From a virus: 64,000 nt of DNA. Location: IMG/VR virus record IMGVR_UViG_3300009788_000087, one strand, 5' to 3'. Position numbers and translations under genes: made by a program. Position 1 is the first letter of the stretch, and each line of letters starts with the position of its first letter. This document shows positions 1-48,869 of the stretch, one piece after another. Under the pieces are notes generated by a model. The model did no database searches. It was not told the origin of the DNA and saw only the letters and a list, made by a program, of their open reading frames with translations.

Positions 1-3000
1 CCCATTTTTTCAGCTTCATGAGGGCATGACGATTTCTTAAGATCAGTCCAATAAAAACCATCAGGAAATTCAATGATAGCATTGCTTTTATCTCGCTCTG
101 CCGAAGCATCATCTGCAATCGTTTCAATTGTATTAAAGTCTTTTGCTGCCTGTATTTTCTTGGCTAGATGTGGTTTTTTCTTCAAAGTAGAAAGAAGATT
201 TGAACCAAAATCCTCCATAAATTCATCGACTCTATCTTTTCTTTTTCCCAACTTAAAGCGCTGAATATTAGGTGGAAGCTGATCGTCGATGGTGAGAGAT
301 TCGACAAAGTCGTCATCCCATTTTTCACCATAAAGTTTAAACGCTGTAGCAAGTGCAAAAGTATGTTTTTTATCTATCTCATAGAAATGATCAGCTGCCC
401 ATTTTGGAAACTTAAGAAGCCTCGTAATATTTCCACGTGAGTCTTCATCGATCATGCCGACAGTGTCCGCCTCATTGGCGGTCTGATCACTACCGGCTTC
501 TAGAAAAATAGAATAAACCTGTTCTCGAATGATTGACTCAAGCACATCGGGTTCTTCTCCACCTTGGACATCTGAAAGACCAATGTCAATCAAGACATAT
601 TCGCCTCCCCTCTTCATGAGGTTTTCACCTCGATAATCAGAGAATGAAATGCCTTTTCCTTTCAATTCCTCCCATGAAGACTTTACTTTGTATTCATTTT
701 CAAGCTTGTCAAGGATTTCAGTCGCCCAGTTTTTTGCAATCCTACCCTCTTTAGATGCAGGATCACCACCACCCTTCTTCTTTACAGCATGTCGTATTGA
801 TTCCTTAACAGCTTCTTCCCATGTCTTAGCTCTTTTAAGCCAGATAGGAAGACCAGTAAAGACCAGCATGTTGTCAAATTTATCTGATTCTTCTTTTGAT
901 AGTGGTTCAAGTTTTTCCTGTATGATCCCGTATGCTTGAAGATCTTTAAACCTGAAGACGTCGATTATTGCAGCGACATGTTTCATGGTCATGCCTTTGA
1001 TCTTGTTGGACGCTATAGCTTCTTTTGAGTCCTTCGTGACCTTAAGAACCTTGCGGCCACCAACATCAAAAGCAGTACCCTGTGTTCCTTTACCTAGTTC
1101 TTTTGCAGTGGAAACATCAATGAGCTTCTTTGTCTTGAGTAGATCAGCATTCCTCTCGAGGATCTTCTTTGCATCTGCTGGATTGGAAGGATCTAGTCCC
1201 ACAAGTCCAGTCTCTGGATCGTCCAATGGTTTTGAACCAGGTTCATCATCAGCTTTCGCACCTAGTTTATCTCCTTTGCGGCGACCGACGGCACTTGGTT
1301 CATCAGGAGGACCAAACAACTCATCACCCAAAGCTTCAGTTAATTTCTCTACTAAAGAATTGATACTATCTTTTTTCATCTCACCAAATGCCTCACAAAG
1401 CTTGAACCATCTCACCCTTCCAAGTGCAGTTCTAATCATGTTGAGAGGAGAGAAATCCTCAGTCATAACTTCTTCGCGGATCCATGTATCCACTGAGAAG
1501 AACTCATTATCTGTCCTCTCCACGATTATCGGATGCATTGCGATCTTGTAGATGTGGCTCTCAAATACCGGTAGAGGCTGCGTCTTCCACGCCTCAGCAA
1601 GCTTAGAAAACCTGTAGATTGTAGCATTTGCAGTCTCAAGATACCTCTCTTTGTATCCCTCACTGAAAAGCTTGTTGTCATTGCAGAACTTGCTGAGTGC
1701 CTCGCCGAGTGATAGATTTCCGTAGTGCCTCTTCATGTATCCCACAATTGCTGGAATCTTGAGAGTCTTGGATCCAATGACATGCTCCGCAACTTTGTTT
1801 CTAAACTCTTTGGTCAGACCTGGAGTCCAGACGCCATCTTCTTTCAATCCCTTACCGAGTTGCTCGCGGTGGCGCCACATGGTTTTGTTAAGTTCAGTGA
1901 AGAGATGGCGGTTGACAACTTTGACCATCTCATTTGTCAGCGTGTTTCGAATGACAATGCCCTCGACAATCTTCCCGCCAAAGTGTGGAAAGATCATGGC
2001 AACGTGTGTCATGAGATGTTCTTCAATTACATGTCGTTCTTTCACCACAGGAAGCATGAATTTTCCAACTGGAACACACTCAAACATCCAACCGTCAAGC
2101 TTGACAGCTTCCGTGAGACGCTTGAATTCCTCAGACGTGTTGTGCAACACGATGGCATTTGGCCCATACTCCAACACATTGGGTACAGGACCGTCTAGAA
2201 TCTCACAGGTGACGCTCAGTGCTCCTGCAGGCCAGTTTGATATGATGGCCTCAGCCTGAGATTCAAGAGCCTCATGCGCCCTCTGGAGAGACGAGATGGC
2301 ACGGCTATTTGGCCAGTCTCTCGAGTCCATGACGGGCCCATAGTTCTTTGACTTGGTCCACAGGGTTCCTTCCTTGACACCGAACTCCATGAAGGCTGAA
2401 CCGTCAAGCTTCTCGGTAATTTCAGCATTTCCTGCACGCCAGGCCTCGATGAACTCCCAGAATTTCTCTTCCTTTAGATTACCGATGTGCGGAATGCCTT
2501 TTCCCATAGTGCTAATTGTATAACACTCAGGACGCAAAGTATCTGCTTTTTTGCTTTCTGTAAATTCTTTTGGAAGAGTACCACGATCATTCCTCTTATC
2601 ATACCAATCTCCTTTATTGTTACCAGAACGATGAAGTTTTTCCATGTCCTCTTCTACTATAATTTTAACATTATTTGAACCATGGTTTATTACAATGTAT
2701 TCTTGCTCTTCGTCTCTATAGTCTGTAGATAATCTTCTCGTATAATAGTTTATCAAGTTATCAAACCATGAAACAGTATGTTTTGGACCAGATATTAATA
2801 TATCAGGTTTGTCTTTCAGTTCTAATATGTATCCAATACCTTCTTCGTTTCTATCAACACCGTATGCATTTGCTATATTTGCAAACCTGAGAGCCGCGTG
2901 TGGTTGTGTTGTCCAGCTACTAAATGCTCCAACTGTTGGTAATGCCAGCACAGAACCTTCACCATTTCCGATTCTTTTCTTTAACACTAATCCACGATAT

Positions 3001-5288
3001 AGTGGTGGTAGACTTGTGGTAGTAAAAATTTCTTTGCGCGCTTGTGGATTTTGATATAGGAATTTAACATTTTCGACTGTCGTTTTTTTACCTGCTTCTT
3101 TGATTGCCTCCTTGCCCCATACCCACATAACGACTTCATTTAACATACCAATAAGCGTCTTTTGCCCGTAGCGTGACATAAATGATTTAGCTTCTTTTAT
3201 CTCACTGTCATTTAATTTAGAAAACGCTTTTCCAAGCTGTTGTTTGCCAACGACGGCAGCGGCCTCATTGGTAATCTTTCCGCCTGGCTCCGCAAGTTTC
3301 TGCTTGAACTGGTCCACTGGCATCTGAGACATGCCGCCAAAGAAACCCTCATCATCATAGTGCTTGAGGTAGGCAGCTTTCGCTTCATCAGCACATCCAA
3401 AACCGAGCATGCACTTGTCTTCATCGTGTTCAATGAAGTCAGGCTTCGTCATCTGGTGCACGACATAGACCCACTCAGCATCCTCGTCATCACCGATATA
3501 GACATCTACTGGATCGTCATCGGTGCCCTCAGTTTCCTCGACATAGCCGTAGTCATGCTGCATCTTGGTCTTGCCAGTCTTGCCGTCACTGTCAGTCCAC
3601 TCACGTGAAGAACCCTTTGACTGCTCTATAGAGATTGGGATATCCTGAAATGTATACCTGTCATCGAGCTTGAAACCTTCTTCGTTGTAACCTAGATCTT
3701 CTACGCCACAACCCATCTGTTCTGCATAGCCATCGAGCTTCTCTACTTCAACGTCAGGTTCTGCGTGTTCTTTGAGAAAATCAAGGACATCAGGATCTGG
3801 ATCTGACATAAAGATCTTTTCAATGTAATTCATCGCGAGCTTGTCGTTCTTCTTTAATTTTTCGATGAATGACTTTGTCTTTTTGTAATCGAACCACTCT
3901 TCTCCACTGGGTTTTTCAAGACTCGACTTGTCAATTGAATCAATACGTTTTATACTAACGGCGGCATATGGGTTTGCAGAAACTTTCTTCAGTAGTTCTA
4001 TCGTTGCGCGTTCGATACCAAATGGATCATCTTCATTGTCGTCAAATTTCTTTCTAACCTTATCGACTTCAAACTGTATGGCACTCATGTCGATCTCATA
4101 ATTTGCATCATCTGTTACGACGATGTTAACCACGTGACCTGGTATACGCTTTACGTATGCTTCGAAACCGGACTCATTAGCTGCTTTTGCAAACGCTGGT
4201 GATATACCTGAACATACTTTAACGGCACGTGAACATACCATTAATTGAAAGACGACAACAGGGATTGCTTCCTTTAGCCACGATTTTAAATCAGATGTAC
4301 TCTTTCCTTCCTTGAGCCTAGGATTCTTTGCGATTTTTATACGTGGATCAATCTCACCAGTCCGTGTCATGAGCAACGGATCTTCAGGGTCTGCATCGTG
4401 GATAGGTTCTGTGAGTTGTGGGCCTATCGATACTTCATTGGTAGAATTTTCGATTGAAGATTGAGTCTTTTTAAGAAAAGCATTTATATATTTCCAGTAT
4501 TTTTTATCTGGATCTTTACTTTGCTTTCCTGCAATTTCTGTAACGAGTTTTGTTTTTTCATCCCATGTCATTGTAACATGTGGACTATCATTTTGATCGC
4601 GGAGTGAAAACATTTCACCCTTAGATTGAACCTGACCACAATGCTGCATGAGCCCGCCTTCTAATGAACATGCATCAAATCCACTCACGCTAGAAAGGTT
4701 TGACCAATAAAACCCATCTGGAAACTGCATAAAAATTTCATCTCTTATTGCTTTACTTCTTTTCTTGTCAAGAGATATATTGGTAAAAATCTGGTCTATT
4801 GTTTTTTCATCATTAGCGTTGTTTATTTTTTTTGCCACAGATGGATTCAATTCAAGCATCTCTATATATCTCTTTCCACCCTCATCGCCGTCGTCGTCAC
4901 TCCAATGTTCATATACTATTTCAATATCTTCTTCACTCATGTTATTACTAACATGTTTTATTTTAAAAATCTTTGCTAATGCAAAAGCTATCTTTGGATT
5001 AATCTCATTAAGATCATCAGCAATACTTCTTGGAAGCTTTAATAGCTTAACGATAGAACCACGAGAATCTTCTCTTAATTTATCAGAGAATGCCTCATCT
5101 TGCAACTCGGGTCTCTCATCGGGATCCTTAATCATACCTCCAAGTGGATATGACTTTGCAAACATACCCCTAGAACGCCCGCCGCCAGGACCTGATTTGT
5201 TTACAGTCTGTGTGGTAGCAGCATTTTTATGTCCAGTGAGCTCTAAGAGTTGCTCACGGATGATCTTGTCGAGATAACTGAGAGACAT
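1..5288 (-). CDS. Giant polyvalent protein, >=1762 aa, 3' end outside window: PcfJ-like + papain-like + pyrophosphatase + ADP-ribosyltransferase + RNA-ligase-like + protein kinase + second PcfJ-like module
   Basis: Hand translation from ATG 5288 (just after TGA-TAG at 5294-5289) is stop-free to base 1; absent from the track because it has no stop in the window. Motifs: EGGLMQHC..SLRD..PHVT; C..H..D (VCSGIS/GHVV/IDMS); DYGY..DDDPVDVY; LYRG/FSSWT/EEQEY; EKLDG/EGIVIR/VKVV; LGKGTQG/VLK/DYRGEN/DIG. Confidence 0.9.
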   Translation of the reverse strand, partial: MSLSYLDKIIREQLLELTGHKNAATTQTVNKSGPGGGRSRGMFAKSYPLGGMIKDPDERPELQDEAFSDKLREDSRGSIVKLLKLPRSIADDLNEINPKIAFALAKIFKIKHVSNNMSEEDIEIVYEHWSDDDGDEGGKRYIEMLELNPSVAKKINNANDEKTIDQIFTNISLDKKRSKAIRDEIFMQFPDGFYWSNLSSVSGFDACSLEGGLMQHCGQVQSKGEMFSLRDQNDSPHVTMTWDEKTKLVTEIAGKQSKDPDKKYWKYINAFLKKTQSSIENSTNEVSIGPQLTEPIHDADPEDPLLMTRTGEIDPRIKIAKNPRLKEGKSTSDLKSWLKEAIPVVVFQLMVCSRAVKVCSGISPAFAKAANESGFEAYVKRIPGHVVNIVVTDDANYEIDMSAIQFEVDKVRKKFDDNEDDPFGIERATIELLKKVSANPYAAVSIKRIDSIDKSSLEKPSGEEWFDYKKTKSFIEKLKKNDKLAMNYIEKIFMSDPDPDVLDFLKEHAEPDVEVEKLDGYAEQMGCGVEDLGYNEEGFKLDDRYTFQDIPISIEQSKGSSREWTDSDGKTGKTKMQHDYGYVEETEGTDDDPVDVYIGDDEDAEWVYVVHQMTKPDFIEHDEDKCMLGFGCADEAKAAYLKHYDDEGFFGGMSQMPVDQFKQKLAEPGGKITNEAAAVVGKQQLGKAFSKLNDSEIKEAKSFMSRYGQKTLIGMLNEVVMWVWGKEAIKEAGKKTTVENVKFLYQNPQARKEIFTTTSLPPLYRGLVLKKRIGNGEGSVLALPTVGAFSSWTTQPHAALRFANIANAYGVDRNEEGIGYILELKDKPDILISGPKHTVSWFDNLINYYTRRLSTDYRDEEQEYIVINHGSNNVKIIVEEDMEKLHRSGNNKGDWYDKRNDRGTLPKEFTESKKADTLRPECYTISTMGKGIPHIGNLKEEKFWEFIEAWRAGNAEITEKLDGSAFMEFGVKEGTLWTKSKNYGPVMDSRDWPNSRAISSLQRAHEALESQAEAIISNWPAGALSVTCEILDGPVPNVLEYGPNAIVLHNTSEEFKRLTEAVKLDGWMFECVPVGKFMLPVVKERHVIEEHLMTHVAMIFPHFGGKIVEGIVIRNTLTNEMVKVVNRHLFTELNKTMWRHREQLGKGLKEDGVWTPGLTKEFRNKVAEHVIGSKTLKIPAIVGYMKRHYGNLSLGEALSKFCNDNKLFSEGYKERYLETANATIYRFSKLAEAWKTQPLPVFESHIYKIAMHPIIVERTDNEFFSVDTWIREEVMTEDFSPLNMIRTALGRVRWFKLCEAFGEMKKDSINSLVEKLTEALGDELFGPPDEPSAVGRRKGDKLGAKADDEPGSKPLDDPETGLVGLDPSNPADAKKILERNADLLKTKKLIDVSTAKELGKGTQGTAFDVGGRKVLKVTKDSKEAIASNKIKGMTMKHVAAIIDVFRFKDLQAYGIIQEKLEPLSKEESDKFDNMLVFTGLPIWLKRAKTWEEAVKESIRHAVKKKGGGDPASKEGRIAKNWATEILDKLENEYKVKSSWEELKGKGISFSDYRGENLMKRGGEYVLIDIGLSDVQGGEEPDVLESIIREQVYSIFLEAGSDQTANEADTVGMIDEDSRGNITRLLKFPKWAADHFYEIDKKHTFALATAFKLYGEKWDDDFVESLTIDDQLPPNIQRFKLGKRKDRVDEFMEDFGSNLLSTLKKKPHLAKKIQAAKDFNTIETIADDASAERDKSNAIIEFPDGFYWTDLKKSSCPHEAEKM

Positions 5289-5291
5289 CTA

Positions 5292-5663
5292 TCACTCCAC
5301 TAGAGTCGGCACTCGGCGGCGAACTTCGTCTTCGATGTCTTGTCGACGATCGACTTTCTCAATGATTTCAAGAGTCTTTTCCTGTGTCTCAACAACTCGG
5401 TCAAGGTGTTTGGCTACACTTGCTAGGTGCTCAGCCATTTTCTCTTGGTGGTTTTTCATGTCACTAATATCCCTCTCAATCATGATATTGTTTGTATGAA
5501 CCTTTTCATAGGTTTCTCTAATCTGTCTTGAAACTTCAGGATGCAAGTGTATCGGCGACTTTCCGTTTTTCTTCGTATCCCATCTCTTAATAAAGAAATC
5601 GATTACTTTCGATAAAGCAATGATTACGGTAACGAGAGCAGCGACTGTTCCTGGGGAATCCAT
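5292..5663 (-). CDS. Small protein with N-terminal transmembrane helix and coiled coil (holin-like, uncertain)
   Basis: Hydrophobic VAALVTVIIALSKVIDFF followed by basic residues and heptad-rich tail. Confidence 0.45.
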   Translation of the reverse strand: MDSPGTVAALVTVIIALSKVIDFFIKRWDTKKNGKSPIHLHPEVSRQIRETYEKVHTNNIMIERDISDMKNHQEKMAEHLASVAKHLDRVVETQEKTLEIIEKVDRRQDIEDEVRRRVPTLVE

Positions 5664-6325
5664 TAGTTTATTTCTCCGCTACCTGATTTTTTACGTGCAG
5701 CTTTCGCTTTATCAAGCTCACCTTTTGGAATATTTTTAAGCTCCGGATTAATTCCCGGATCATAGTCTTGTGTTGACGCGAGTGCTATAGCAATTTGTCG
5801 CATCGACGACGTCAATTTCTTCTGCGGAAACATTCTCTCATCATCACCATACCACTCATTTCCATCCCAATAATAGATGTGATCTGGGTTTTTTATTTTT
5901 CTCTTTTCTGGTTCACCTTGCGGATCAAACATCGCAAATCTATCATCCCACCAAAGCTTTGCTGCAATATCGCCATCAGTAAACCACTCTTCTTCACCAT
6001 TTTCAAAATAACTTTCACCTTTACTACTGATATCTTTAAAATGTTCTTCGCGCATGTCTGCAAACTTTTTATACGTTTCTCGAGCACTCTCTACATCATC
6101 TTCTGTTGCTGGCTTGCCGTCTGCTCGCTTAATACCTGCAGCTATATCTTCAGAATCTCTCTCTATAGCTGATCTATAAGCATCAGCCATACTCTTAAAA
6201 AATTCCTTCCACACATCTACAAACTTTCGCCTCGCGTCAGGTGGTAGTTCTTTAAACTTCACATATCTCGTTTCCTGACCACTATACATGGATTCGAACA
6301 GGAATATTCGTGCAAGAGAAATCAC
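5663..6325 (-). CDS. Hypothetical protein with leader MISLARIFLFES (putative capsid-internal protein)
   Basis: 220 aa ORF coupled to neighbours; leader shared with other ORFs; Trp-rich C-terminal part. Confidence 0.6.
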   Translation of the reverse strand: MISLARIFLFESMYSGQETRYVKFKELPPDARRKFVDVWKEFFKSMADAYRSAIERDSEDIAAGIKRADGKPATEDDVESARETYKKFADMREEHFKDISSKGESYFENGEEEWFTDGDIAAKLWWDDRFAMFDPQGEPEKRKIKNPDHIYYWDGNEWYGDDERMFPQKKLTSSMRQIAIALASTQDYDPGINPELKNIPKGELDKAKAARKKSGSGEIN

Positions 6326-6330
6326 TATAT

Positions 6331-7527
6331 TTACTCTCCGTACAGACGGTGACCGTAGCTAGCCTTTGATGTCTTCTGTTCTTTTACTTTCTTACCACCA
6401 AGCTGCTGAAACTTGCTCAACTCCTTGATTCTACCATCCGGCCCCTTCATCCCACCAATAAGAGTATACACGTTTAAACGAGGTTTCTCATCTTCGTACA
6501 CACCACGGTGCATCATTGCGTCACCTGTCAACATAGCAAGAGTATCGAAACCTTCTTCGATTGCTGTGTTGTCTAATTCCTCGAGGATTGACGAACCGCC
6601 AAGAACAACGGCTGCAGCGTGTGATGCAGATGTTAGATCAAATCCACCTGCTAACAGAGTCTTGCTAAGATTGCTCTTCAGTGCAGCAGACACAGAACCG
6701 CTGTCGTCGAGATTCTTCACAGACGTGACACCCATGATCATGCAGCCGCCGCTGCGCATGACTGACATGTAATCTGCTGTGTCGAATGTTGTATATTCAG
6801 TCGGCTTCTTCGTGATGATATTGAACACGTGGAAGAGACCCGCCACTGTTGCATTGACAGTTGGCCAGAAACTCTTAACTGAGAGCTTCGGATACATCTT
6901 CTTTATCTTATCATTGTCGATGAATATAAGTGGACTAACGAGCTTCTTGTCTGCGTAGCCGACTAGTGTCTTTGAAAGCAGTTCGGCATTTTCAGCAACT
7001 GCCTTTGACGCTGACTCACCCGCAGTTGGAAGCGTCATGATTACACCGACACGCTGGTCTGCGTTTGGTTGTCCAATGTGAGTGAGATATAACTTAGCAG
7101 TCTCCACGAGAACAAGTGTTGAGCCGCCACCTGATCCACCACCAGCACCGACACAGATCATGATGTGATCGACTGGTCCAAACTTCTTCTTCATGAGGTC
7201 GAGTATCTGTTGCTGTGAACCAGCTGCTGCAGACTCTCCCTTCGCCATGTCTTTTCCAGCACCCTGCTCTCCTGCATTGAGAAGCACCTTCTGATCTTCT
7301 GGCACATCAACTTTGCTGAGATCTTGTATCGCAGTATTCACGCACAGTGTCTTCTTGTAGCCAAGTTTATAGAATGCCTGAGCTAGCCGACAGCCTCCCT
7401 GACCTGAACCGAGGAATGCATATGTCACAGCACCGCCGGACTCGTCTTCTAGGGACTCATCCTCATATTCTTCTAACTCTGCTTCTAATGGCAGATCAGG
7501 AATTTCGATGTCAAATTCTTCACTCAT
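6331..7527 (-). CDS. Tubulin/FtsZ-family GTPase
   Basis: GSGQGG (T1), VNTA, GAGKD (T3), GAGGGSGGG (T4 signature), IDND, FDTAD (T7-loop-like). Confidence 0.9.
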   Translation of the reverse strand: MSEEFDIEIPDLPLEAELEEYEDESLEDESGGAVTYAFLGSGQGGCRLAQAFYKLGYKKTLCVNTAIQDLSKVDVPEDQKVLLNAGEQGAGKDMAKGESAAAGSQQQILDLMKKKFGPVDHIMICVGAGGGSGGGSTLVLVETAKLYLTHIGQPNADQRVGVIMTLPTAGESASKAVAENAELLSKTLVGYADKKLVSPLIFIDNDKIKKMYPKLSVKSFWPTVNATVAGLFHVFNIITKKPTEYTTFDTADYMSVMRSGGCMIMGVTSVKNLDDSGSVSAALKSNLSKTLLAGGFDLTSASHAAAVVLGGSSILEELDNTAIEEGFDTLAMLTGDAMMHRGVYEDEKPRLNVYTLIGGMKGPDGRIKELSKFQQLGGKKVKEQKTSKASYGHRLYGE

Positions 7528-8171
7528 GTTCCACTTCCTCCAGTCGATGGGCCAAACTGAACATCTCCTCTCGTCCCGAACGGGTCAAACTCACCTATAC
7601 CGTGAGTCTTCTCTTTCTTATTATCTTTTGATTCCCATCTCTTTGTATGGAGCAATCGCACTTTATTTGGATCGATATGCCTGATTATTTTAGCAGAACC
7701 ATCAACAAGTACTTCGACCATGTCGGACGCGTCTCTTTTCTTTGACATACTTGATGGATCACCCTTCCAATATTCTTCTGCATATGCACGGGCTTCTTTT
7801 GATTTAAAGTCTGCTTCTGTCCAATATTCCATGTTTGTATAAAATACTTTACCAGTCACTTCAACCTGATAGACATCATTGAAATTATCTTCAGACCATA
7901 TGTCACTTGCCCATGATATTGCTGCGTATATACTTGGAAATACCAGTTTACTTCCTAATCGTGATGGTCGATCTGGCCATTTTTCTTTTCTCACTTGATC
8001 AAATAATTGTTCTTGTTCTTCCATGCCTCTAACACCATTGAATGTTGGAACTTGCATGCCTGGCTCAAATTTAGTAGAACCCTCCGCGGGGTTTGATACC
8101 CAAAAAAAACTCTTATTAGCTGAAACGTTTTCAAGTTTCTCTATAATATAAATTTCTTTAAGAGTGATCAT
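7524..8171 (-). CDS. DUF2441-like ADP-ribosyltransferase-fold protein with leader MITLKEIYIIEK
   Basis: FDQVRKEKWPDRPSRL...VYQVEV...AEEYWKG...EVLVDG pattern; start set at ATG 8171 overlapping the upstream TAA (TAATG). Confidence 0.6.
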   Translation of the reverse strand: MITLKEIYIIEKLENVSANKSFFWVSNPAEGSTKFEPGMQVPTFNGVRGMEEQEQLFDQVRKEKWPDRPSRLGSKLVFPSIYAAISWASDIWSEDNFNDVYQVEVTGKVFYTNMEYWTEADFKSKEARAYAEEYWKGDPSSMSKKRDASDMVEVLVDGSAKIIRHIDPNKVRLLHTKRWESKDNKKEKTHGIGEFDPFGTRGDVQFGPSTGGSGT

Positions 8172-8629
8172 TAACCCGATTCCCATGTTCCAGGAGGATA
8201 ATCATAATATACTTTTTTTTCTCCTGGACTATAGTTGGCTAATTCCCCTTGTCCGCCATCTGCTTTTGGATCCCAAATCCAAACAGGATCATCCTTAATT
8301 GGGCCAGCTTCAGCCCAAAGAGTCTCGTCTTTTTCAACAAAAACCCAATCTGACGGATCTGGATTAACTTCTTCATGCTCTATGGATGTCCAATACTTAG
8401 CAAAATCTGGAAATTTAGAAGTTACATCACCCCATGATAGTTTCTTTGCAGGAGAATTGTATACGTCATCTATTCCTTTCGGTGATGTCCTAGTAGACAC
8501 AGGTTGTGACCTCTTTGTCCAAGGATCTGCTTTGCCTGTCGGCTTCCTCTTTCCAGCTGGATCATCAAACTTACCCCAAGGGAAGTCAGCTTCCCAAAGA
8601 CGTCTGTATATTTTCTTTAGTCTTATCAT
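8171..8629 (-). CDS. Hypothetical Trp-rich protein with leader MIRLKKIYRRLWEA
   Basis: N-terminus near-identical to that of 31383..31850 (FPWGKFxDPxGK). Confidence 0.65.
   Translation of the reverse strand: MIRLKKIYRRLWEADFPWGKFDDPAGKRKPTGKADPWTKRSQPVSTRTSPKGIDDVYNSPAKKLSWGDVTSKFPDFAKYWTSIEHEEVNPDPSDWVFVEKDETLWAEAGPIKDDPVWIWDPKADGGQGELANYSPGEKKVYYDYPPGTWESG
8567..8586. repeat. 20-nt exact repeat AAACTTACCCCAAGGGAAGT, copy 1
   Basis: Identical to 31788-31807; lies in the FPWGKF-coding leader extension. Confidence 0.85.
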
Positions 8630-9187
8630 TTAGACTCCCACATTCGAGACTCGCATGCTCGAACCACCAAACTTCAGTGGTCGCTTGCTGTGGTTAATCC
8701 CAGTTCCAAGTGGGTCCAAGTCGTCATCGTCGATCAGATGTGCTTGCGTTTGACTTACTTCAACTTCTCCCAAAGCACCATTGTTAGAATCTGGAACATC
8801 ATCACGATCATGTCGAGGATCTACTGAGGAATAGAAACCTTCACTGAAGCGATAGATGCTCTCGAGTTTCGGCATCCTCGATTCTTCTTGGTGGTCATAG
8901 TACTGTGGATCATCGACAAGGTGATCCATCGCTATTTCCATTGCTGCTGCAACATCACTAGTGTGTTCAAGTTCGTGGTGCATACCTTGCATTAGCTGCA
9001 CTTGATCGAACTGCCCGGGATCATACTGTGATCCTTCTCCGCCTGGTAGACGTTCCATCGCGATGGGATTAGCATGTTCCTTCTTATCAGGCAGCTTGTC
9101 GTAATTAGTTCCTTTTCCTAACTTCTTTGCAAGCTTTGGATCATTAGCATAGGCCCACTTCTGTTGTTGTCTTGAACGAAATGGCAT
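8630..9187 (-). CDS. Three-module protein: basic MPFRSRQQQKWAYAN motif + DUF5661-like domain + leader-bearing C-terminal module
   Basis: LPGG..QFD.VQL..GMHHELEHT.D..AMEIAMDHL.DDPQYY; internal MPKLESIYRFSEG at ATG 8875. Confidence 0.6.
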   Translation of the reverse strand: MPFRSRQQQKWAYANDPKLAKKLGKGTNYDKLPDKKEHANPIAMERLPGGEGSQYDPGQFDQVQLMQGMHHELEHTSDVAAAMEIAMDHLVDDPQYYDHQEESRMPKLESIYRFSEGFYSSVDPRHDRDDVPDSNNGALGEVEVSQTQAHLIDDDDLDPLGTGINHSKRPLKFGGSSMRVSNVGV

Positions 9188-9191
9188 TATT

Positions 9192-9776
9192 CTACAGTTC
9201 GTTTCGAATCTGCCCCTTGAAGAAGAATTTTATCATCCCGGACTTTCCAAGCAAAATATGGAGAGGATGTGGGATTTCCTCGAATTGGATGACAACCTCA
9301 TGTGCACCACCCATCATCTTAGATTCAGGATTATATGCAATCGACTGAATCTGTCGACCGGTTATTTCTTTCGAAATAGCTCCGCCTTCTTTCTCTTCTT
9401 CATCTCCCTGATCCTCGACATCCTGCGACAGTTCTGTGTCTGATGGATCTGGATCTCCTGCTGGAACTTCCTCATCAGGAATGTCCTGGTCACCCGCTTC
9501 TGGATCAGCTGGCTGTTCCGGTGGCGATTCTTCTCCCGGAGGTGGTGCTTTTGGCTCATCACCCTCTGGAGCACCAGTCGCTATCTCAGCTCCCCGCTTT
9601 GGTGCCATGTCTGTGCCAGATTTCTCGGGTGCGACATTGTCATTGTCTTTATCAGCACCTTGGACGCCAGGCTCTTTATCTTCCTTATCGTCTGCTTCGA
9701 AGAACTCTCTTATTAGGAGCTCAAGCTCTTCGCGGACAATCTTCTCAACTCTAGATTTCTTAAACTTGATCGACAT
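9192..9776 (-). CDS. Acidic low-complexity protein (putative prohead core/internal protein)
   Basis: N-terminal KIVREELELLIREFFEA then D/E/P-rich linker; start set at ATG 9776 behind AAGGGAAG. Confidence 0.6.
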   Translation of the reverse strand: MSIKFKKSRVEKIVREELELLIREFFEADDKEDKEPGVQGADKDNDNVAPEKSGTDMAPKRGAEIATGAPEGDEPKAPPPGEESPPEQPADPEAGDQDIPDEEVPAGDPDPSDTELSQDVEDQGDEEEKEGGAISKEITGRQIQSIAYNPESKMMGGAHEVVIQFEEIPHPLHILLGKSGMIKFFFKGQIRNEL

Positions 9777-9812
9777 GGTATCTTCCCTTGTATTGAGATA
9801 CAACTGTTCGAT

Positions 9813-10427: not shown

Positions 10428-10727
10428 TCAGCTATCACGGCTTTCTCTTTCTTCGACAAGTTTCTGTGCAAAATACCTAATGAAGTCTGTCTCAAAGAAC
10501 TCCATGGCTGCTTCGAACACAAGCTCCTCAGACTGATCGACATATGATACATCTACCTGAGGATAGTGTAAACACCATAATGTTAGTGGGTTTCCTTCTG
10601 GATCCTTTGGATCCCTGACATCATCCTTGTGTAGACGATATTCTGCTTTTACCTCAGCACCCTTCACACACATTTTTGCTGAGTCTTGTCTAACCAAATT
10701 CTCGAGGTTTAGTTGAAAGTCAATCAT
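10428..10727 (-). CDS. Hypothetical protein
   Basis: 99 aa ORF coupled between the polymerase and HD genes. Confidence 0.55.
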   Translation of the reverse strand: MIDFQLNLENLVRQDSAKMCVKGAEVKAEYRLHKDDVRDPKDPEGNPLTLWCLHYPQVDVSYVDQSEELVFEAAMEFFETDFIRYFAQKLVEERESRDS

Positions 10728-12207
10728 TTTGATCCCAATAGTTTAGACCCGATTTTACCTTAACTTTCAGTCTCATTCCGAAAAGTCTAGCTGAACCGAG
10801 TTCCATTATGTCTCGCATCTCATCGAGGTACTCCATCTCGTCTGGATGCATATCGATAACTAGCTCATCATGCACAGTGAATAGCATCACTGATTTCTTG
10901 TCCTGAAGAAAATCATGTAGACTTACGATTGAATCCATGAACACATCACTTGTGCAAGTCTGTGCATAAAGAGCGAGCACTTTGCCTGGATGTTCTGATC
11001 CATTCAGATCAATTTTCATGTCATCTGGTGTAATTACATACCCTTGATTCATTGATTCAGAATACATCTTCTCTCTGAAGAACACGATTGGTGCGAATAG
11101 TTCATTGAGTTTCTCAACGAGAACTCCTACTTTCTCACTCGACAAACCAGTTGTCTTTGGCAGATTCTTCAATGATCCACCGTAAAGTCGTGTATACGTG
11201 ATTGTCTTTAGAACACGTCGTCTGATACCAGATGTGTCATGGAACTCGTTATCTCCAAAGATATACTCTACAGTTCTATCGTGAAAATCGTCGCATCCTT
11301 CATAGTATGCGTTAAGGTTCTCATCGTCAACTGATGCTACAATGCACCTATAATCCGCAGCGTTGAAATCGAAGGTTGCAATCTTGCCGCCATCAAATCT
11401 ACTGACGATACTCTGACGTACATGGTTTCTTGGTATATTCATGCATTTGAAAGAACCTTTCGCTGTATGGACTCTTCCGGTCTTGGTTCTTTGTGGTATG
11501 AACTTGTTATAGACATATGATCCAGACATCTTGTCTCTGATGTGTTGGATGAATGCCAAATCGTGTGTTGTCATGCCTGCATCAAGATCAATATTATCAG
11601 GGTCTACGTGCACACTATTTTCTTCCATGAGATATAGGACACGTGCTCTATCATAACCAAAAGATCGAAACTGTTCACTATCAAACTTCTTCACCAGTGT
11701 ATTGACCATCCAGTTTCTTAATCTATAGAATGATATTACCACCTTACTTGGGATTATATCAATGAGAGAGTGTTCGTCAAGATTAATCTTCGCTGTTTTA
11801 CATGCCTTGATATGTGAATTGTACTCATGTCTTCCTGCAAGATACTCAACGACATCAGCATCTTTGATATGCTTATTGACTGCTTTGTACAGGTTTTCCT
11901 CACCTGCCATCACTGACACATCTATCACATCACAGTATCTCTTGAAATTACAACCAAGCTTAAGCACATCACGCATGTCAAAACAGATCTTCTCATGCTT
12001 GTGAGAGAAGATCTCATGAATGAAACCATCGAATTCGTCCCAGTCGTTATTCAGGACAAAATAATGATCTGCACCAAAGGATAGAGAAATGCCTTTGACT
12101 CCGGTCGAGTCCTTCACTGCTTCGAAAGTGAACCCTTCATTCTGGGCTCTCTTCTTCAGAGTCTCCAAATGCGCCATCTCCTTTATTATAACACATCTCT
12201 GTGCCAA
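10720..12207 (-). CDS. Family A DNA polymerase-like protein (short, divergent)
   Basis: TKTGR; motif A DFNAADYR; motif B RRVLKTITYTRLYG; motif C VHDELV; no clear exonuclease motifs; start uncertain (TTG). Confidence 0.85.
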   Translation of the reverse strand: MAQRCVIIKEMAHLETLKKRAQNEGFTFEAVKDSTGVKGISLSFGADHYFVLNNDWDEFDGFIHEIFSHKHEKICFDMRDVLKLGCNFKRYCDVIDVSVMAGEENLYKAVNKHIKDADVVEYLAGRHEYNSHIKACKTAKINLDEHSLIDIIPSKVVISFYRLRNWMVNTLVKKFDSEQFRSFGYDRARVLYLMEENSVHVDPDNIDLDAGMTTHDLAFIQHIRDKMSGSYVYNKFIPQRTKTGRVHTAKGSFKCMNIPRNHVRQSIVSRFDGGKIATFDFNAADYRCIVASVDDENLNAYYEGCDDFHDRTVEYIFGDNEFHDTSGIRRRVLKTITYTRLYGGSLKNLPKTTGLSSEKVGVLVEKLNELFAPIVFFREKMYSESMNQGYVITPDDMKIDLNGSEHPGKVLALYAQTCTSDVFMDSIVSLHDFLQDKKSVMLFTVHDELVIDMHPDEMEYLDEMRDIMELGSARLFGMRLKVKVKSGLNYWDQND

Positions 12208-28821: not shown

Positions 28822-29331
28822 TTAACTCCCACAAGTTGACGGATCAACTGGGTGGGAATTATCAATGAATTGAGCGGAATCACTATGTATTTGCATTTGA
28901 CCCTCACGTGATGGTGTACACCTGCACTGAGTCATGATCTTCTCATTGACCTGACCAAATACAAGCTGTGGCTGCGTGACTGATGTTATCTCAAACACTA
29001 CTTGACCAAACTCAATGAAGTCACCTTCTTTTGGTGAAACATTCCTGCCGATAAGTTCATCTGTGTGGAAATAAACATCAAGACTGTATTTTGAATCTAG
29101 TGTAAACTGTGTCGTATCGACGCCTGGATTGTCATAATTGACCAAAGCATTGATTTTCACAGGACTAAACCATATCTTATTTATGCTTTCCTGATACAAC
29201 CTGTGTGAGACAGTGTGTTCTTCAGAGATTGCGTAGTAGATGACCTCTTGACCAACAAAGTTCTGGATGAGTTCTTTGTTTATCTTCGATATAAAATCGA
29301 GCTCTTTCGATGTTATGAATTTTCTAGAGAT
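28822..29331 (-). CDS. Neck protein (gp14-like), apparent ATC start
   Basis: Frame opens after TGA at ~29350; SRKFITSKELDFISKINKELIQNFVGQEVIYY is continuous with the track ORF; PKEGDFIEFG; GGAGG 8 nt before ATC 29331. Confidence 0.65.
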   Translation of the reverse strand: MSRKFITSKELDFISKINKELIQNFVGQEVIYYAISEEHTVSHRLYQESINKIWFSPVKINALVNYDNPGVDTTQFTLDSKYSLDVYFHTDELIGRNVSPKEGDFIEFGQVVFEITSVTQPQLVFGQVNEKIMTQCRCTPSREGQMQIHSDSAQFIDNSHPVDPSTCGS

Positions 29332-29705
29332 TGTTCTGGCCTCCGTATATCAAAAATTGATCCAGGTTCTTCAATATCGACATCAACGATTGTCGCTAAT
29401 TTATATGCAAGAGCTCCAATATCTTGCTGTGATATTTTCATTAACATGTGTGGTTTACCGGTTGCGCCAGCATCATAAAAGAAACCCTTAAGGCCTTTTT
29501 CGAGTTCATCAATAACAACATCAATATCATTATGCTCACGATGAATATCATTAATCAAATCTACTGTAGATTGCTTCAGATCATCTACTATCTCATGGTT
29601 AACATCACCTCGTCGATTTTTAACCCATGTATCGATCACGTCATCTACAATTGTAGATATTTCATCGTTTTCACAAAGTTTATATACTTCAGTAAGTCTA
29701 ATCAT
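29313..29705 (-). CDS. Hypothetical protein with leader MIRLTEVYKLCE
   Basis: ATG 29705 overlaps the end of the upstream gene; leader family. Confidence 0.55.
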   Translation of the reverse strand: MIRLTEVYKLCENDEISTIVDDVIDTWVKNRRGDVNHEIVDDLKQSTVDLINDIHREHNDIDVVIDELEKGLKGFFYDAGATGKPHMLMKISQQDIGALAYKLATIVDVDIEEPGSIFDIRRPEQSLENS

Positions 29706-30234
29706 CACGCTCCCACCATCCAATGAGCTCGCCGCCCGCACCAGTATCTGGTGTATTGAATGCCGCAACTTCCATATCAAAACCTTCCAGCATTTCTTTT
29801 GTGACTGTCACTGCATGTTCTTCACGATCATTTCCATATGATGCCTTCTGCGGACATAAGCCCCACGGACATCCGTATATGATCCTCTTCACATTTTTCT
29901 TCAACATTTTGGTAACTTCACCGAGCCATTCTTCATTGAGAGCATGCTCAGGACCGTGATCCCAGTGTACAGTGTGCCACTCATCTTTCTCAAACATCTT
30001 ATGCAAGTCTGCGATGTCACCGAGATGTTTTTCAATACCTTCTACATCAAATTGAGCCAGATTAGGTTTGAATATCTCAAGTAGACCGATCCTCTCCGCA
30101 CCGAGCTTCTTTGCATAGTCTACCCAGTGGAGATATGATCCCTTTCTCCATCCGACATATAGGAATGAAGAAGTAGGAGTAAATTTTTCTACGCTATTGT
30201 CCAACCAATCGTATGCTGGTTTATTGTGTGGCAT
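29698..30234 (-). CDS. Class I SAM-dependent methyltransferase-like protein
   Basis: FLYVGW..LLEIF..LGDIADL..VHWDHGPEHA resembles a Rossmann MTase layout. Confidence 0.5.
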   Translation of the reverse strand: MPHNKPAYDWLDNSVEKFTPTSSFLYVGWRKGSYLHWVDYAKKLGAERIGLLEIFKPNLAQFDVEGIEKHLGDIADLHKMFEKDEWHTVHWDHGPEHALNEEWLGEVTKMLKKNVKRIIYGCPWGLCPQKASYGNDREEHAVTVTKEMLEGFDMEVAAFNTPDTGAGGELIGWWERDD

Positions 30235-30239
30235 TATTT

Positions 30240-31382
30240 CTATCCTACGTAAATTCCTAATGGCACCTGAGCCAACTGCCTATTCAAGTTTTCTGCCACC
30301 TCTGCTTCACGTGCAGCTATATTTTGATATGTCGTATCTTCCAAGAACTCTCTTATCTCTGACCTAAGTCTTTCCTGTTCAGTCCTTGCATCTGAAATAA
30401 GCTCTGGACCGTTCAAAGTGAGGTCACCGTTTGGAATCGGGATCGTGGAAATCTTTGAACGAATCTCACCTAACACTTCTTTCGATAATGCGTGAGTCAT
30501 CTTCCAAATCCACGACCTTGAAATAGAATTCAAGTTGCAGTATTCAATGTTACTAAACGGTACATTCGATACGTTTGAAACCCCGTCGAGCTGTGCATCA
30601 TCATAGTCCGGAACATAAGGGTCTTTCGGCAACCAGTATGTAAAGTGGATTCGTGTTGCATTTGTCGGAGTCGGATACATCTTAATCACGTTGTTATTGA
30701 TATCGTAACTAAACTGTGATCTCCTAACTCTATTGGATGTTTCAAACTGCATTCCGCGAAGGATATCTTCCCAGACAGGAAGGAGATAGAATATAGTCTC
30801 AGGTGTGAATGACTCAAAGCTGAACTGATTATTCAGGAAGTTAACTGCAGACGTCGTACCGAAGAATCTATACTGCGTTAGTGGACTGAAGTGGAAGACT
30901 TCCTTAATCTGTGCTTTTCTTATTCGACCGTCTGATCCTGTGAGTGAGCCCGATATGATGACTTGAATGTCGTAGTCTTGCTGTCCGACCGTCGTTGTGA
31001 AAGAGCCACTGTGTAGCGTAAAAGAACCTCCGACACCAGCAAGCTCTCCGTACGGTTCTGCCTGTCGACGCTGGAATTCAAGAAGATTCTGTGAGTACCT
31101 ATTCTCTTGCCCGCCGCCAGCAACTGATCCAGTAAGAGAACCGGTTGGAGAACCGAGCACACTAGCTGCCACAGATTTATATTGGTACTGGTTAATGTAT
31201 GCACCGTACTCGATTGCTGCTTCTTCGAATGATGAATACACGTCAGACGCACTGAGTTCTACACAGATTTTTGATCCCCCAAGCTTCTTGCGAACCCAGT
31301 TCTCAACTTTGTCTGCGTCATCCTGGAAACAGACGTCACTATCAAAAATACCGAAAGGTGTTGCGCCTACTGTAAATGCCAT
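30240..31382 (-). CDS. Neck/head completion protein (gp13-like)
   Basis: TPFGIFDSD..FQ.DA; KLG..ICVEL; KEVLGEIRSK..IPIPNGDLTLNG. Confidence 0.75.
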   Translation of the reverse strand: MAFTVGATPFGIFDSDVCFQDDADKVENWVRKKLGGSKICVELSASDVYSSFEEAAIEYGAYINQYQYKSVAASVLGSPTGSLTGSVAGGGQENRYSQNLLEFQRRQAEPYGELAGVGGSFTLHSGSFTTTVGQQDYDIQVIISGSLTGSDGRIRKAQIKEVFHFSPLTQYRFFGTTSAVNFLNNQFSFESFTPETIFYLLPVWEDILRGMQFETSNRVRRSQFSYDINNNVIKMYPTPTNATRIHFTYWLPKDPYVPDYDDAQLDGVSNVSNVPFSNIEYCNLNSISRSWIWKMTHALSKEVLGEIRSKISTIPIPNGDLTLNGPELISDARTEQERLRSEIREFLEDTTYQNIAAREAEVAENLNRQLAQVPLGIYVG

Positions 31383-31850
31383 TTATTTTAATCTTCCACC
31401 AAATGGGTCATAACCAAAATCTTTAAGTATCTCAGGTTCTCTACCGAGATGTATGTGACGTTCCCAAGTTTTACCGCCATCAATATCTGGATGTGCTAAG
31501 AATACAAAAACTTCACCTGAGTCCGGGTCAATTACTTCAGTTCTAAACTTCTTTCCACCATGATCCCATAAAGTCACGTCTGTCAATTTTCCAAGATCTA
31601 TACCTTCTTCTTCAATTTTTTCTCCAAAAGCAGTATGTAGCTGATTGCCGACTGTGCGATAGAAGTCGACATTTTGAATCTGCTTACCGTCGGTGGTGGC
31701 ATCTGCATTCCCGACGCCGAGATCTTTTGATGTTAAACCAGCACTTGGAGGAGTCGGTCTTGCACGATGTTTTCCCTTTGGATCTTTAAACTTACCCCAA
31801 GGGAAGTTGGCTTCAAAAATTCGCTTGTATATCTCAGTGAGCTTGATCAT
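31383..31850 (-). CDS. Hypothetical protein with leader MIKLTEIYKRIFEA
   Basis: Shares FPWGKFxDPxGK with 8171..8629. Confidence 0.65.
   Translation of the reverse strand: MIKLTEIYKRIFEANFPWGKFKDPKGKHRARPTPPSAGLTSKDLGVGNADATTDGKQIQNVDFYRTVGNQLHTAFGEKIEEEGIDLGKLTDVTLWDHGGKKFRTEVIDPDSGEVFVFLAHPDIDGGKTWERHIHLGREPEILKDFGYDPFGGRLK
31788..31807. repeat. 20-nt exact repeat, copy 2
   Basis: Identical to 8567-8586. Confidence 0.85.
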
Positions 31851-32206
31851 GGTCCACCCTCCCAAACCTTGTTTCGTTCATCCCACCAAAGATAATCTTC
31901 TCCAATTTCAGATTTCAAATTATCGTTATATGCACGCCACTCACCTGAAAAATCTTCGAATTCCCATTTTGACGCATCTAAATCCATATTTGGATGGCCA
32001 CTCCAATCATTAGCAAACTTGTCTGCAGCTTCTTTTTCTTTTGTTGTAAATTGATCCCATGTAAACACTGGAATCTTATCAGTCGATGATGTACCAGTTG
32101 ATTGTTTTTGTTTTTCCCATGGGTTTGGATCACTAGGTTTTATTGGCTGTTGCTTATCGAAATCCCATTGAAGCGTGGCTTCGTATAATTTGATGAGCTT
32201 GATCAT
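31847..32206 (-). CDS. Hypothetical Trp-rich protein with leader MIKLIKLYEA
   Basis: Start set at ATG 32206; W-rich core loosely resembles 8171..8629. Confidence 0.6.
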   Translation of the reverse strand: MIKLIKLYEATLQWDFDKQQPIKPSDPNPWEKQKQSTGTSSTDKIPVFTWDQFTTKEKEAADKFANDWSGHPNMDLDASKWEFEDFSGEWRAYNDNLKSEIGEDYLWWDERNKVWEGGP

Positions 32207-32210
32207 CTCT

Positions 32211-33028: not shown

Positions 33029-33030
33029 TC

Positions 33031-33433: not shown

Positions 33434-35152
33434 TTAGATTACGTTGAGGTCCTGCACCTGTACGGTTCCATAAAAGTCGCTTCGAACCAATTTCTTAGCG
33501 TACCTGGTCATCACACCCTTGCGAGGCGTGAAGTCTTCAGGTGCGTAGATCGTCGGAGTGACAATCAATGGCACGTAAGGTGCATACACAAAGCCCGTCT
33601 CGAGGAAGCTACCTCCCTTGTATCCAACAAGAACCTTGTTCCTGATGAAGTACGGATCCTTGTAGACCGTGAACCTGTTGTTCAGGCTACCGACCTTTTC
33701 AGTACCGACGGTGAACTGGCTCTCCTTTGGGTCCATCGAAAGGTTTGGCTTATAGAGCACTGATGCTTCCAGAATCGTGCAGACATCCGGAGATGTGACG
33801 AGGAAGTTAGCTGCTCCACGAAGCGTCTTGCGATGGATGTTGTTTGCGACGTCGATGACTGTCTCGATGAGAGTCTCGTACCACTCGCGAACAGTACCAG
33901 TGAAGGACGCACCAGTTGCGGTGTTGCCCGTGGTCTTATCCAGGAAGTTACCAGGCTTACGTGACCAGAAGAAGTTCGCGCCAGTTGCATTGTATAGCAA
34001 GTCAGCGAGAATTTCGCGGTCGATTTCAAGAGCGATCTGCTCTGAAAGCACCTGAGTAAGCTCAACCTCTGCATCCAAGTTCTGGTATGCAGCGAGGTCC
34101 TGAGCAAGCTCCGGAGTCCAGCGAGCCCTAAGCTTCCTGGTCTCAGCAGTCACACTGACTGACTGGATACGCAGGTCGATTTCTGGGATCGACGGAGTTG
34201 GGCTGGTAGCAAGGTCAGACTCGAAGACCGGGAGGGTCAACGTACCAGAAGTTCCACCTGTGAGGCTAGGATCAATCAGGTAACTGATCTTGATGGCGCC
34301 GTCAACACCGACACCTGCACCACCGAGCTGTGGCAGTGTACCACTTACGATGAATACAACATTATCACCGTCTCTTACCGTGTGGCGCCTGTAGACTACG
34401 ACATCTGCTGTTGCATCTGTACCGAGTCTAATAGGAACACCGTCGCTCGTTGTCGTGAATGACGTTGACGAACCTGACACGGGTACCCAATGCTTCAAGC
34501 CACCGATAGAAACATCAGAACCTGAACCGACTAGAATCGAGCGTGCACTTGTAACAGTGAGCTTGATAAGATTCGTCACTGAACCTGAAAGATCAGGATC
34601 ATGTGCGACGTCTGACAACGATGCAGTTGCTGCAGTGTAGTTGAATGACGCGACTGATACTCTTTCCCTACTTGAGAAGCTCGTACCGAAGTTATAGAAA
34701 CCTCCAGTACCTAGGTTCTCAGTTCCAGGTGCTGTCTGGTCACCGAACAATGAACCACCGACCGTAAAGTCGTCGTTCTTATTGCCGGCCTTGACAGTAT
34801 CAAACCTGTAGTCGAGGTAGAAGAGAAGTCCTGATGGCAGACTCATTGGCTGCACAGAAACGAGCTCGTTCGCGATCAGACCACCGAATACACGGCGTAC
34901 GATTGGGAATGCAACGTTCTGGAAACCGATAATGTCAGCTACCTGTGACTGCTCGTTAAGAAGCTCGCCAGCCATGTTCTCGAGAAGAACGGCCATGTTA
35001 GACTTGTCAGCCTGGTTACGACTGTCGTCTAGACCCTCGAGAAGACCGGTGACGGTCCACTTCTCAACTAGTCTCTTTACCTCAGCTTTACGATCATTCT
35101 TATAAATGTCCTTCGTAAGTGCTGCGAGGTTGAAATTAGCTTGCCTTGGCAT
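33434..35152 (-). CDS. gp23: Major capsid protein
   Basis: KW..TGLLEGL; FPIVRRVF; VSVQPMSLPSGLLFYLD; RKLRARWTPELAQDL; GFVYAPYVPL; PRKGVMTRY; AAGGAG ribosome-binding site. Confidence 0.97.
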   Translation of the reverse strand: MPRQANFNLAALTKDIYKNDRKAEVKRLVEKWTVTGLLEGLDDSRNQADKSNMAVLLENMAGELLNEQSQVADIIGFQNVAFPIVRRVFGGLIANELVSVQPMSLPSGLLFYLDYRFDTVKAGNKNDDFTVGGSLFGDQTAPGTENLGTGGFYNFGTSFSSRERVSVASFNYTAATASLSDVAHDPDLSGSVTNLIKLTVTSARSILVGSGSDVSIGGLKHWVPVSGSSTSFTTTSDGVPIRLGTDATADVVVYRRHTVRDGDNVVFIVSGTLPQLGGAGVGVDGAIKISYLIDPSLTGGTSGTLTLPVFESDLATSPTPSIPEIDLRIQSVSVTAETRKLRARWTPELAQDLAAYQNLDAEVELTQVLSEQIALEIDREILADLLYNATGANFFWSRKPGNFLDKTTGNTATGASFTGTVREWYETLIETVIDVANNIHRKTLRGAANFLVTSPDVCTILEASVLYKPNLSMDPKESQFTVGTEKVGSLNNRFTVYKDPYFIRNKVLVGYKGGSFLETGFVYAPYVPLIVTPTIYAPEDFTPRKGVMTRYAKKLVRSDFYGTVQVQDLNVI

Positions 35153-42651: not shown

Positions 42652-43245
42652 CTACTTCCTCACTCGTATATCATTAAGAGCTCTATAGATCCTGTCAGCC
42701 TTGCTCCATATTCTCTTAACGTCAACTTCAACTGATTCATTCATGAACGCGCCAGGAGTTGATGGTTCACTAACTGCGTCAAAACAAATGAGCTGGTAGT
42801 CATCCTGTACAACGTCAGTACCTTCATTCGTTGACTCTGTGCTTCCCACTCCCCTGCTCGACATTCCAATTCTGACGCCTGATTCAAGAAGTGACTCAAG
42901 GATCTTTCCTTTCGGTGTATTTAGAACTTCTACCATCCCACGAACTACATCACCTTCCCAGAAGATTTCTCTGACAATGTGAGATGTCTTATCGAGTGCA
43001 ACTGTTGATGTTTCAGGATGATCAAGTTCGCCTAGAGCTCTGTTCTCACGAACGACTTTCTCATAGTTCAATACTTCACGTTGAAGGATCTCATTTGGAT
43101 AGATTCGACCATTCTGATTCTTCGTACCAGACTTCTGAAGAATTGCTGGCAGAAGAATTTTTCCACCATTCTTATTCCTTGACTCATTGATGGCATCGGC
43201 AGTACATTCAAGTGCATACCACTCTCTTAAAAGTGTCTTTTTCAT
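42652..43245 (-). CDS. gp21: Prohead protease
   Basis: KNQNGRIYP; GELDHP; GMSSRGVGS; DAVSEPST. Confidence 0.95.
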   Translation of the reverse strand: MKKTLLREWYALECTADAINESRNKNGGKILLPAILQKSGTKNQNGRIYPNEILQREVLNYEKVVRENRALGELDHPETSTVALDKTSHIVREIFWEGDVVRGMVEVLNTPKGKILESLLESGVRIGMSSRGVGSTESTNEGTDVVQDDYQLICFDAVSEPSTPGAFMNESVEVDVKRIWSKADRIYRALNDIRVRK

Positions 43246-48868: not shown

Positions 48869-48869
48869 A

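Follow-up and report, generated by a model that had tools for sequence, protein, structure and literature searches.

A ten-module, mostly enzyme-like polyprotein of a T4-like jumbo phage: a variant of polyvalent proteins with probable T4-type processing

Background

Whether a single phage gene can encode a whole series of enzymes, and how its product would reach a host cell, are the questions raised by the left end of a 64,000-nt viral DNA (IMG/VR record IMGVR_UViG_3300009788_000087; hereafter the window). There, a stop-free minus-strand frame extended from an ATG at nt 5288 to the edge, giving 1762 aa. The initial annotation, made from the letters alone, had described it as a hidden polyvalent effector polyprotein with at least six enzyme types, injected to take over the host and to counter its defences. 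Polyvalent proteins carry 2 to 15 disparate domains on one polypeptide of a phage or other element, and those with an inorganic pyrophosphatase (InPase) were predicted to be virion cargo (PMC5512222). In T4, protease gp21 cleaves after L/I-x-E (PMC9026906), and Alt is cut by gp21 at both ends (PMC5694885).

The window was part of the genome of a T4-like jumbo myophage, as judged from a gp23-type capsid protein and a gp21-type protease (Table 1); terminase, sheath, tube and baseplate genes, a TubZ-like tubulin and a portal gene with an intein were recognized by inspection. In the portal gene (nt 45306-48425), the intein-like insertion contained, also by inspection, an HNH-like stretch. A short DNA polymerase A homolog of 495 aa (nt 10720-12207) was conserved across the clade. 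The TubZ/PhuZ-like tubulin gene (nt 6331-7527) occupied the same place in L089, and L249, L251, L252 and L254 had the same neighbouring genes without a tubulin gene between them.

Results and discussion

Reading frame and complete gene

The complete polyprotein gene had 7524 nt and encoded 2507 aa, residues 1-1762 of which lay in the window; the 745 further residues were read from longer contigs. These contigs, L081 (ENA) and L082 (JGI), were reached via the tubulin gene neighbouring the polyprotein gene and showed 0 differences to nt 1-7527 of the window, the assemblies not being counted as independent. Contigs from the probable source run, a subsurface metagenome of 2017, agreed with the window, and Logan unitigs of this run were compared with it. 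The unitigs covered nt 1-3320, 3362-5166 and 5146-7600 with no variant, indel or joint rows, and left a gap of 41 nt unbridged; one 151-nt Logan record of depth 2.4 matched by about 20 nt at two places only. A mis-join is unlikely because the unbridged gap falls inside the conserved pyrophosphatase domain. A mis-joined frame, the outcome that the initial annotation had named as fatal to its reading, was thus rejected, as the identity with L081 and L082 and the Logan unitigs agreed with the window. The frame of the polyprotein gene is real, running off the left edge as first described and complete in both longer contigs. From its length, the protein was estimated at about 280 kDa.

Module composition

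Ten modules of eight types, most of them enzyme-like, made up the polyprotein (Table 1). The positions first given for the PcfJ-like, triad, InPase, R-S-E, ligase, kinase and second PcfJ-like modules all matched; the extents were corrected in that the papain-like module ended at about residue 507, the putative ADP-ribosyltransferase (ART) started at 676, and the ligase extended to about 1305. Translation beyond the window, a check proposed in the initial annotation, completed the chain to 2507 aa and added three modules, namely the domain 1850-1962, an HxGH NadM-like nucleotidyltransferase and a second kinase, K2. The polyvalent architecture and the domain identities held at the level of fold or motif, with strength unequal among the modules: the pyrophosphatase and nucleotidyltransferase identities are firm, the papain/transglutaminase-like, ligase-like, kinase and PcfJ-like identities are fair, and the ART was assigned by its motifs.

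Table 1. Features of the polyprotein and of the head genes in the window
Feature	Residues	Position (nt)	Strand	Evidence or remark
Polyprotein gene	1-1762 of 2507	3..5288	-	whole gene L081:12240-19763
N-terminal leader	1-16	5241..5288	-	ends in L-x-E; resembles T4 capsid-targeting propeptide
Gly/Arg-rich N-terminal segment		5073..5240	-	similar in P0007 and L268
PcfJ-like module 1	73-281	4446..5072	-	ESM Atlas features, repeat
Linker		4302..4445	-	L-x-E at residues 294 and 327
Papain/transglutaminase-like module	330-507	3768..4301	-	C359, H385, D400
Polyvalent-type inorganic pyrophosphatase	543-668	3285..3662	-	Pfam PF18823
Putative ADP-ribosyltransferase	676-905	2574..3263	-	R765, S791, E861-x-E863 motifs
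Ligase-like nucleotidyltransferase (ATP-dependent type)	930-1305	1374..2501	-	KxDG K960, EG 1109-1110, K1123
Linker		1161..1373	-	L-x-E at residues 1314 and 1318
Truncated protein-kinase-like K1	1377-1577	558..1160	-	kinase motifs
Linker		447..557	-	sites 1584, 1589, 1597; N-terminal leader pattern repeated
PcfJ-like module 2	1615-1762 in window, end ~1830	3..446	-	repeat of module 1
Domain 1850-1962	1850-1962	beyond window		
HxGH nucleotidyltransferase	1996-2192	beyond window		
Kinase K2	2229-2439	beyond window		
Gly-rich tail		beyond window		
gp23-type major capsid protein		33434..35152	-	propeptide E58, E67
T4 gp21-type head maturation protease		42652..43245	-	phrog_207, E 4.5e-48

The two PcfJ-like modules shared 37% identity and had no Pfam match. 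For module 1, the ESM Atlas gave a feature score of 0.95 (195 of 256 shared) with clusters of PF14284, the one family into which all 10 of the 10 best named ESM matches fell.

In the papain-like module, the codons of the catalytic triad were located at nt 4214 (C359), 4136 (H385) and 4091 (D400). The module had 76 homologs, most of them standalone proteins about 190 residues long, and defined a family of about 77 clusters (P0034-P0109) without a clear Pfam assignment; in an alignment of 57 rows His and Asp were invariant and Cys was present in more than 90%. The AF2 model (pLDDT 94) gave VIA structural matches to arylamine N-acetyltransferase (NAT), TglA, SseI and protein-glutaminase at Z 4-6; the top Z scores were a middling 6.1 and 5.8 (rmsd about 4), and most leading rows belonged to the papain/transglutaminase-like superfamily. 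Comparison with the Atlas gave Transglut_core rows at TM below 0.5, Foldseek found no viral structure that matched at E 0.001, and a search of PDB with the profile of the papain-like alignment was uninformative. The model would fit a peptidase, a deamidase or an acyltransferase alike. Many members of this Cys-His-Asp family carried other types of leader, which may serve other groups of phages as address tags.

The pyrophosphatase (residues 543-668) matched PF18823 above the cut-off (E 1.3e-33). The putative ART module, helical in its N-terminal part, had its R, S and E-x-E motif residues invariant in three homologs of 27-34% identity; it had no match in Pfam, PHROG or PDB, the search with an alignment profile against PDB included, its ESM look-alikes were unnamed phage clusters and DUF4765, and homolog searches returned nothing beyond two family members (P0003 and L268).

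The ligase-like module had the codon of K960 at nt 2411 and a C-terminal extension, and motifs I, IV and V were invariant in an alignment of seven sequences. The match to Pfam RNA_lig_T4_1 (E 1e-5) scored 26 bits against a cut-off of 28.3, and the alignment profile had no match in PDB. Thus, the proposed RNA-ligase-like nature stood as regards the motifs of a covalent nucleotidyltransferase and fell short as regards the score for the Rnl1 family.

K1 possessed a Gly loop, K1416, D1551, N1556 and D1568, ended about 10 residues past the DxG, and had Arg at the position of the family's His in the catalytic loop. Among 28 kinase domains of the family, the Gly loop, the Lys, the catalytic Asp and Asn, and the metal-binding Asp were all invariant; the Gly of the DxG, where the module stops, was present in more than 90%. 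Matches to Pkinase, APH and ABC1 were weak. Six of the 28 matched phrog_15752 (best 2.5e-6) and two matched phrog_2828, and K1 itself matched neither of these two families. Membership in the T7 kinase family was rejected, as the DPV motif and the C-terminal shut-off domain were absent; the kinase assignment thus held for the core catalytic residues and not for the T7 gp0.7 type that had been named as a parallel. A search of a genome collection gave a single weak kinase match and no clue to the host. In other phage contigs (L271, L272, L274 and L275), standalone kinases occurred in rows of three to six; they belonged to this broad family, and their N-termini were mixed.

The nucleotidyltransferase (residues 1996-2192) contained HxGH, and its best PDB matches were archaeal and Francisella NadM. 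It passed TIGR00125 and scored 41.6 bits with NadM models against a cut-off of 127; similarity to NadM was confined to the first 60 residues, and no Nudix fusion was present.

Relatives and gene order

The window protein (P0002) belonged to a family with about 25 members of shuffled architecture, some from viral contigs, having a core of ligase, kinase and nucleotidyltransferase with varying extras; at 2507 aa, it was the largest member among those retrieved. In 12 long homologs, the nucleotidyltransferase and kinases were present in all, the ligase in 11 and the InPase in 5, in varying order and number. The ART module was found in P0002, P0003 and L268; the PcfJ-like, papain-like and 1850-1962 modules were detected only in P0002 within the family with the seeds used. 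The domain combination, first thought to be possibly undescribed, was seen in this exact ten-module set only here, but the protein is one of about 25 family members. No cultured phage had the polyprotein or the K2 kinase, and the best capsid matches in cultured phages were about 35-45% identical.

Seven genomes were syntenic at the polyprotein locus and differed in module content. The order, where neighbours were read, was tape measure, LysM and polA, then the polyprotein gene, followed by a zincin-like gene and RecA. The polyprotein gene was on the same strand as the tail/baseplate block and 7 kb downstream of it. A scan for promoters and terminators was uninformative. Directly upstream, nt 5292-5663 encoded a small protein that had a hydrophobic helix at its N-terminus and a coiled coil, and for which holin-like is a guess; its position was kept in L249, L251, L252, L254 and L268. 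The next downstream gene, L081:19814-20737, looked by eye like a PD-(D/E)xK nuclease, and in P0005, P0009, P0013 and P0014 its homologs formed a C-terminal extension of the polyprotein. Relatives had further modules that P0002 lacks: P0012 a Pol-beta-like stretch and a lytic transglycosylase, P0014 and L084 a 2H phosphoesterase. A small HExxH zincin-like gene with weak ATLF/M90 matches was located at L082:17149-17580, and in L082, L251, L252, L254 and L268 such a gene followed the polyprotein gene at a distance of one or two genes.

Cleavage motifs in leader and linkers

In the capsid propeptide, E58 and E67 were invariant in 76 homologs, with L or I two residues before in nearly all, and from these conserved sites the gp21-type protease of the window would be expected to have L/I-x-E specificity. 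Residues 12 and 16 of the polyprotein leader marked such sites. Since L/I-x-E is the rule for cleavage by T4 gp21, this fixed rule was tested on the linkers. In 15 family members, linkers contained 3.9 motifs per 100 residues and domains 0.9, with 52 linker sites versus 26 +/- 4 after shuffling of the composition (at most 41 in 500 shuffles). The 11 proteins of a held-out set had 3.0 and 0.73, respectively, with 29 linker sites versus 13 +/- 3 (at most 26 in 1000 shuffles). All these counts are inflated and not independent because the junctions of relatives are homologous. The motif is also common in amphipathic helices, and unsupervised motif discovery with 466 N-termini gave a diffuse basic/hydrophobic/Glu pattern that was confounded by composition. 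For P0002 alone, the strict motif occurred 2.3 times per 100 residues in linkers versus 1.3 in domains, and the 27 strict sites within modules would need shielding by folding. Strict sites were present at 6 of its 9 internal junctions (two of them at module edges) and relaxed sites at 8 of 9; the junction between PcfJ-like module 2 and the domain 1850-1962 had neither.

Leaders and module borders showed the same pattern. In relatives, module starts or ends coincided with hydrophobic-x-Glu, and it was at these motifs that relatives differed by exchanged modules. The ART module directly followed a linker Glu in P0002 and likewise in L268, two proteins in which its neighbours differed. Close standalone homologs of the ligase had a leader of 5-17 residues with L/I-x-E in 12 of 19, or in 17 of 19 if any hydrophobic first residue was allowed, compared with 0 of 4 distant ligases and 2 of 23 replication or tail (non-head) proteins of the window. 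Five incomplete records with standalone ligases or kinases yielded no gp21 match, an absence that carries no weight. A terminal Glu motif was shared by 5 of 6 pyrophosphatases of the family and was absent from 19 unrelated InPase proteins. A standalone papain-like homolog lay within a run of six genes with one common leader, and the standalone form of a nuclease-like module fused in some relatives was without a leader. About a dozen small ORFs of the window (nt 5663-9803, 29313-33405 and 48434-49397) had a basic/hydrophobic leader ending in Glu and are candidate head cargo; among them, nt 7524-8186 matched DUF2441, and nt 48870-49397 had ART-like motifs by eye. The family probably grew by fusion of leader-tagged cargo genes, with leaders turning into linkers.

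Such fusion alone would place motifs at the junctions, and it is conceivable, though unlikely, that the packaged chain is trimmed at its leader and tail only, that the internal motifs are leftovers of fused leaders or tethers to the core, and that the protein is ejected in unfolded form and acts as the intact chain or as a few large pieces. The one junction without a site and the two with relaxed sites only would agree with this, as would the full-length delivery of N4 vRNAP and of some polyvalent proteins (PMC5512222). Against it, the motif was kept at orthologous junctions of divergent relatives, often 2-3 per linker, which suggests selection. Moreover, gp21 has few determinants besides the motif (PMC9026906), so that exposed sites in the prohead should be cut.

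If cutting does occur, a peptidase other than gp21 could be responsible, either the zincin encoded downstream or the Cys-His-Asp module itself. The recurrent position of the zincin-like gene in five contigs, and the zincin processing of polyvalent proteins proposed by Iyer et al. (PMC5512222), speak for this. We nevertheless consider it improbable, as the linker motif is that of gp21 and the same as in the capsid propeptide, and the Cys-His-Asp module was found in P0002 only among family members.

Comparison with known systems

The protein shares with polyvalent proteins (PMC5512222) the many conflict domains, the PF18823 InPase, an ART (here by motif), the shuffled architectures and the predicted virion delivery. 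The kinases of polyvalent proteins lack the C-terminal subdomain, and K1 and K2 likewise end after DxG. Unlike in that group, neither an MPTase nor a MuF, helicase or LPD domain was detected here; PcfJ goes unmentioned in that paper, and its available text does not count RNA ligase among the modules. The proposed processing also differs, by a fused zincin there and by gp21 at repeated linkers here. Judged from its sequence, the protein is a variant of the known polyvalent proteins, with probable T4-type processing.

Like T4 IPI-III and Alt, it has a short L/I-x-E leader, gp21 encoded in the same genome, an ART-like cargo with R-S-ExE and possible C-terminal trimming (PMC9026906, PMC5694885). 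T4 cargo, however, consists of separate, single-function, end-trimmed proteins, whereas ten modules are joined here in one chain with internal sites, and no sequence similarity between T4 cargo and the polyprotein was detected. The T7 gp0.7 kinases (PMC13645617), with weak profile similarity to the family, have DPV and a shut-off domain where DxG is found here, and lack the tandem arrangement of kinase copies inside one polyprotein. HxGH is common to NadM NMN adenylyltransferases, including phage NAD-salvage enzymes (PMC7824862), but the module here was far below NadM cut-offs.

A standalone homolog of the ligase module was found in a cultured Pseudomonas phage as PA5oct gp228 (L328:3962-5302; HMM E 6e-29). 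It is a single-domain protein with an I-x-E leader, encoded among virion-protein genes, with homologs in Paride, MIJ3 and RsoM2USA. This ligase-like gene was unannotated in PA5oct, Paride and MIJ3, all of them cultured jumbo phages of Pseudomonas.

Delivery and action of the modules

On this evidence, the polyprotein is probably head cargo, loaded by its leader and cut by gp21 into separate enzymes, although the assignment is far from secure. One chain of about 280 kDa would be made, and its leader would address it to the prohead core like the T4 capsid-targeting sequence. The gp21-type protease would then cut behind the Glu of hydrophobic-x-Glu motifs, both in the leader and in linkers that are exposed, freeing modules of 20-45 kDa that may be small enough to leave with the DNA.

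The earlier claim of virion delivery gained from the leader ending in L-x-E, the gp21-type linker motifs and the gp21 gene, and lost from the GenBank record of PA5oct, in which gp228 is not marked for ESI-MS/MS detection and eight neighbours are (PMC7318152). This protein is the only cultured module homolog with virion proteomics, that of MIJ3 comprising four bands only, and a low copy number could be the reason for the missing flag.

The same missing flag would be expected of a cytoplasmic multi-enzyme protein of middle or late infection that supports replication and counters defences without being cargo. A location between the genes for DNA polymerase A and RecA/exonuclease/helicase, as observed, would also suit such a protein, which has no MuF or portal domain, and the T7 kinase is an early expressed protein and not cargo (PMC13645617). 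This reading appears rather unlikely, as it leaves the motif enrichment in linkers unexplained, and the leader resembles those of many small ORFs of the window and of standalone module genes, being rare in replication and tail genes.

As injected cargo, the modules would act in the new host ahead of phage transcription. By their folds, the kinases, the ART and the Cys-His-Asp enzyme would modify host proteins, and the ligase-like module would seal nicks in nucleic acid. The NadM-like module is a possible source of NAD, which the ART could use, and the pyrophosphatase would clear PPi released by the ligase and the nucleotidyltransferase. Both couplings are plausible, with the limit that the InPase was present in less than half of the relatives and that one relative with an ART (L268) had lost HxGH from its nucleotidyltransferase. 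That the set serves as a toolkit for host takeover and anti-defence is what we infer, because the functions named for the ligase, kinases and ART come from fold or motif only.

Conclusions

Among titles and abstracts found in an incomplete coverage of the literature, no paper described a multi-enzyme cargo polyprotein cut by a prohead protease. As a broader and still tentative proposal, about which we have more doubt than about the cleavage itself, T4-like jumbo phages may load their heads via protease-cut polyproteins, in which one tag and one gene provide ten equimolar modules that are exchanged at the cut sites, and may thereby inject kinases, an ART, a Cys-His-Asp enzyme, a ligase, a NAD-making enzyme and a pyrophosphatase before phage transcription. 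Two genes of the window would suffice for an in vitro test of the cleavage. If true, polyvalent proteins would be joined to T4 capsid targeting and gp21 processing, ideas that have been kept apart in the literature, and a sequence rule would become available to predict which proteins of uncultured jumbo phages are injected and where their boundaries lie. Kinases, a ligase and a NAD-type adenylyltransferase delivered by the virion would be added to the known injected enzymes, and the modules would provide ready-cut single domains for screens against bacterial defence systems.
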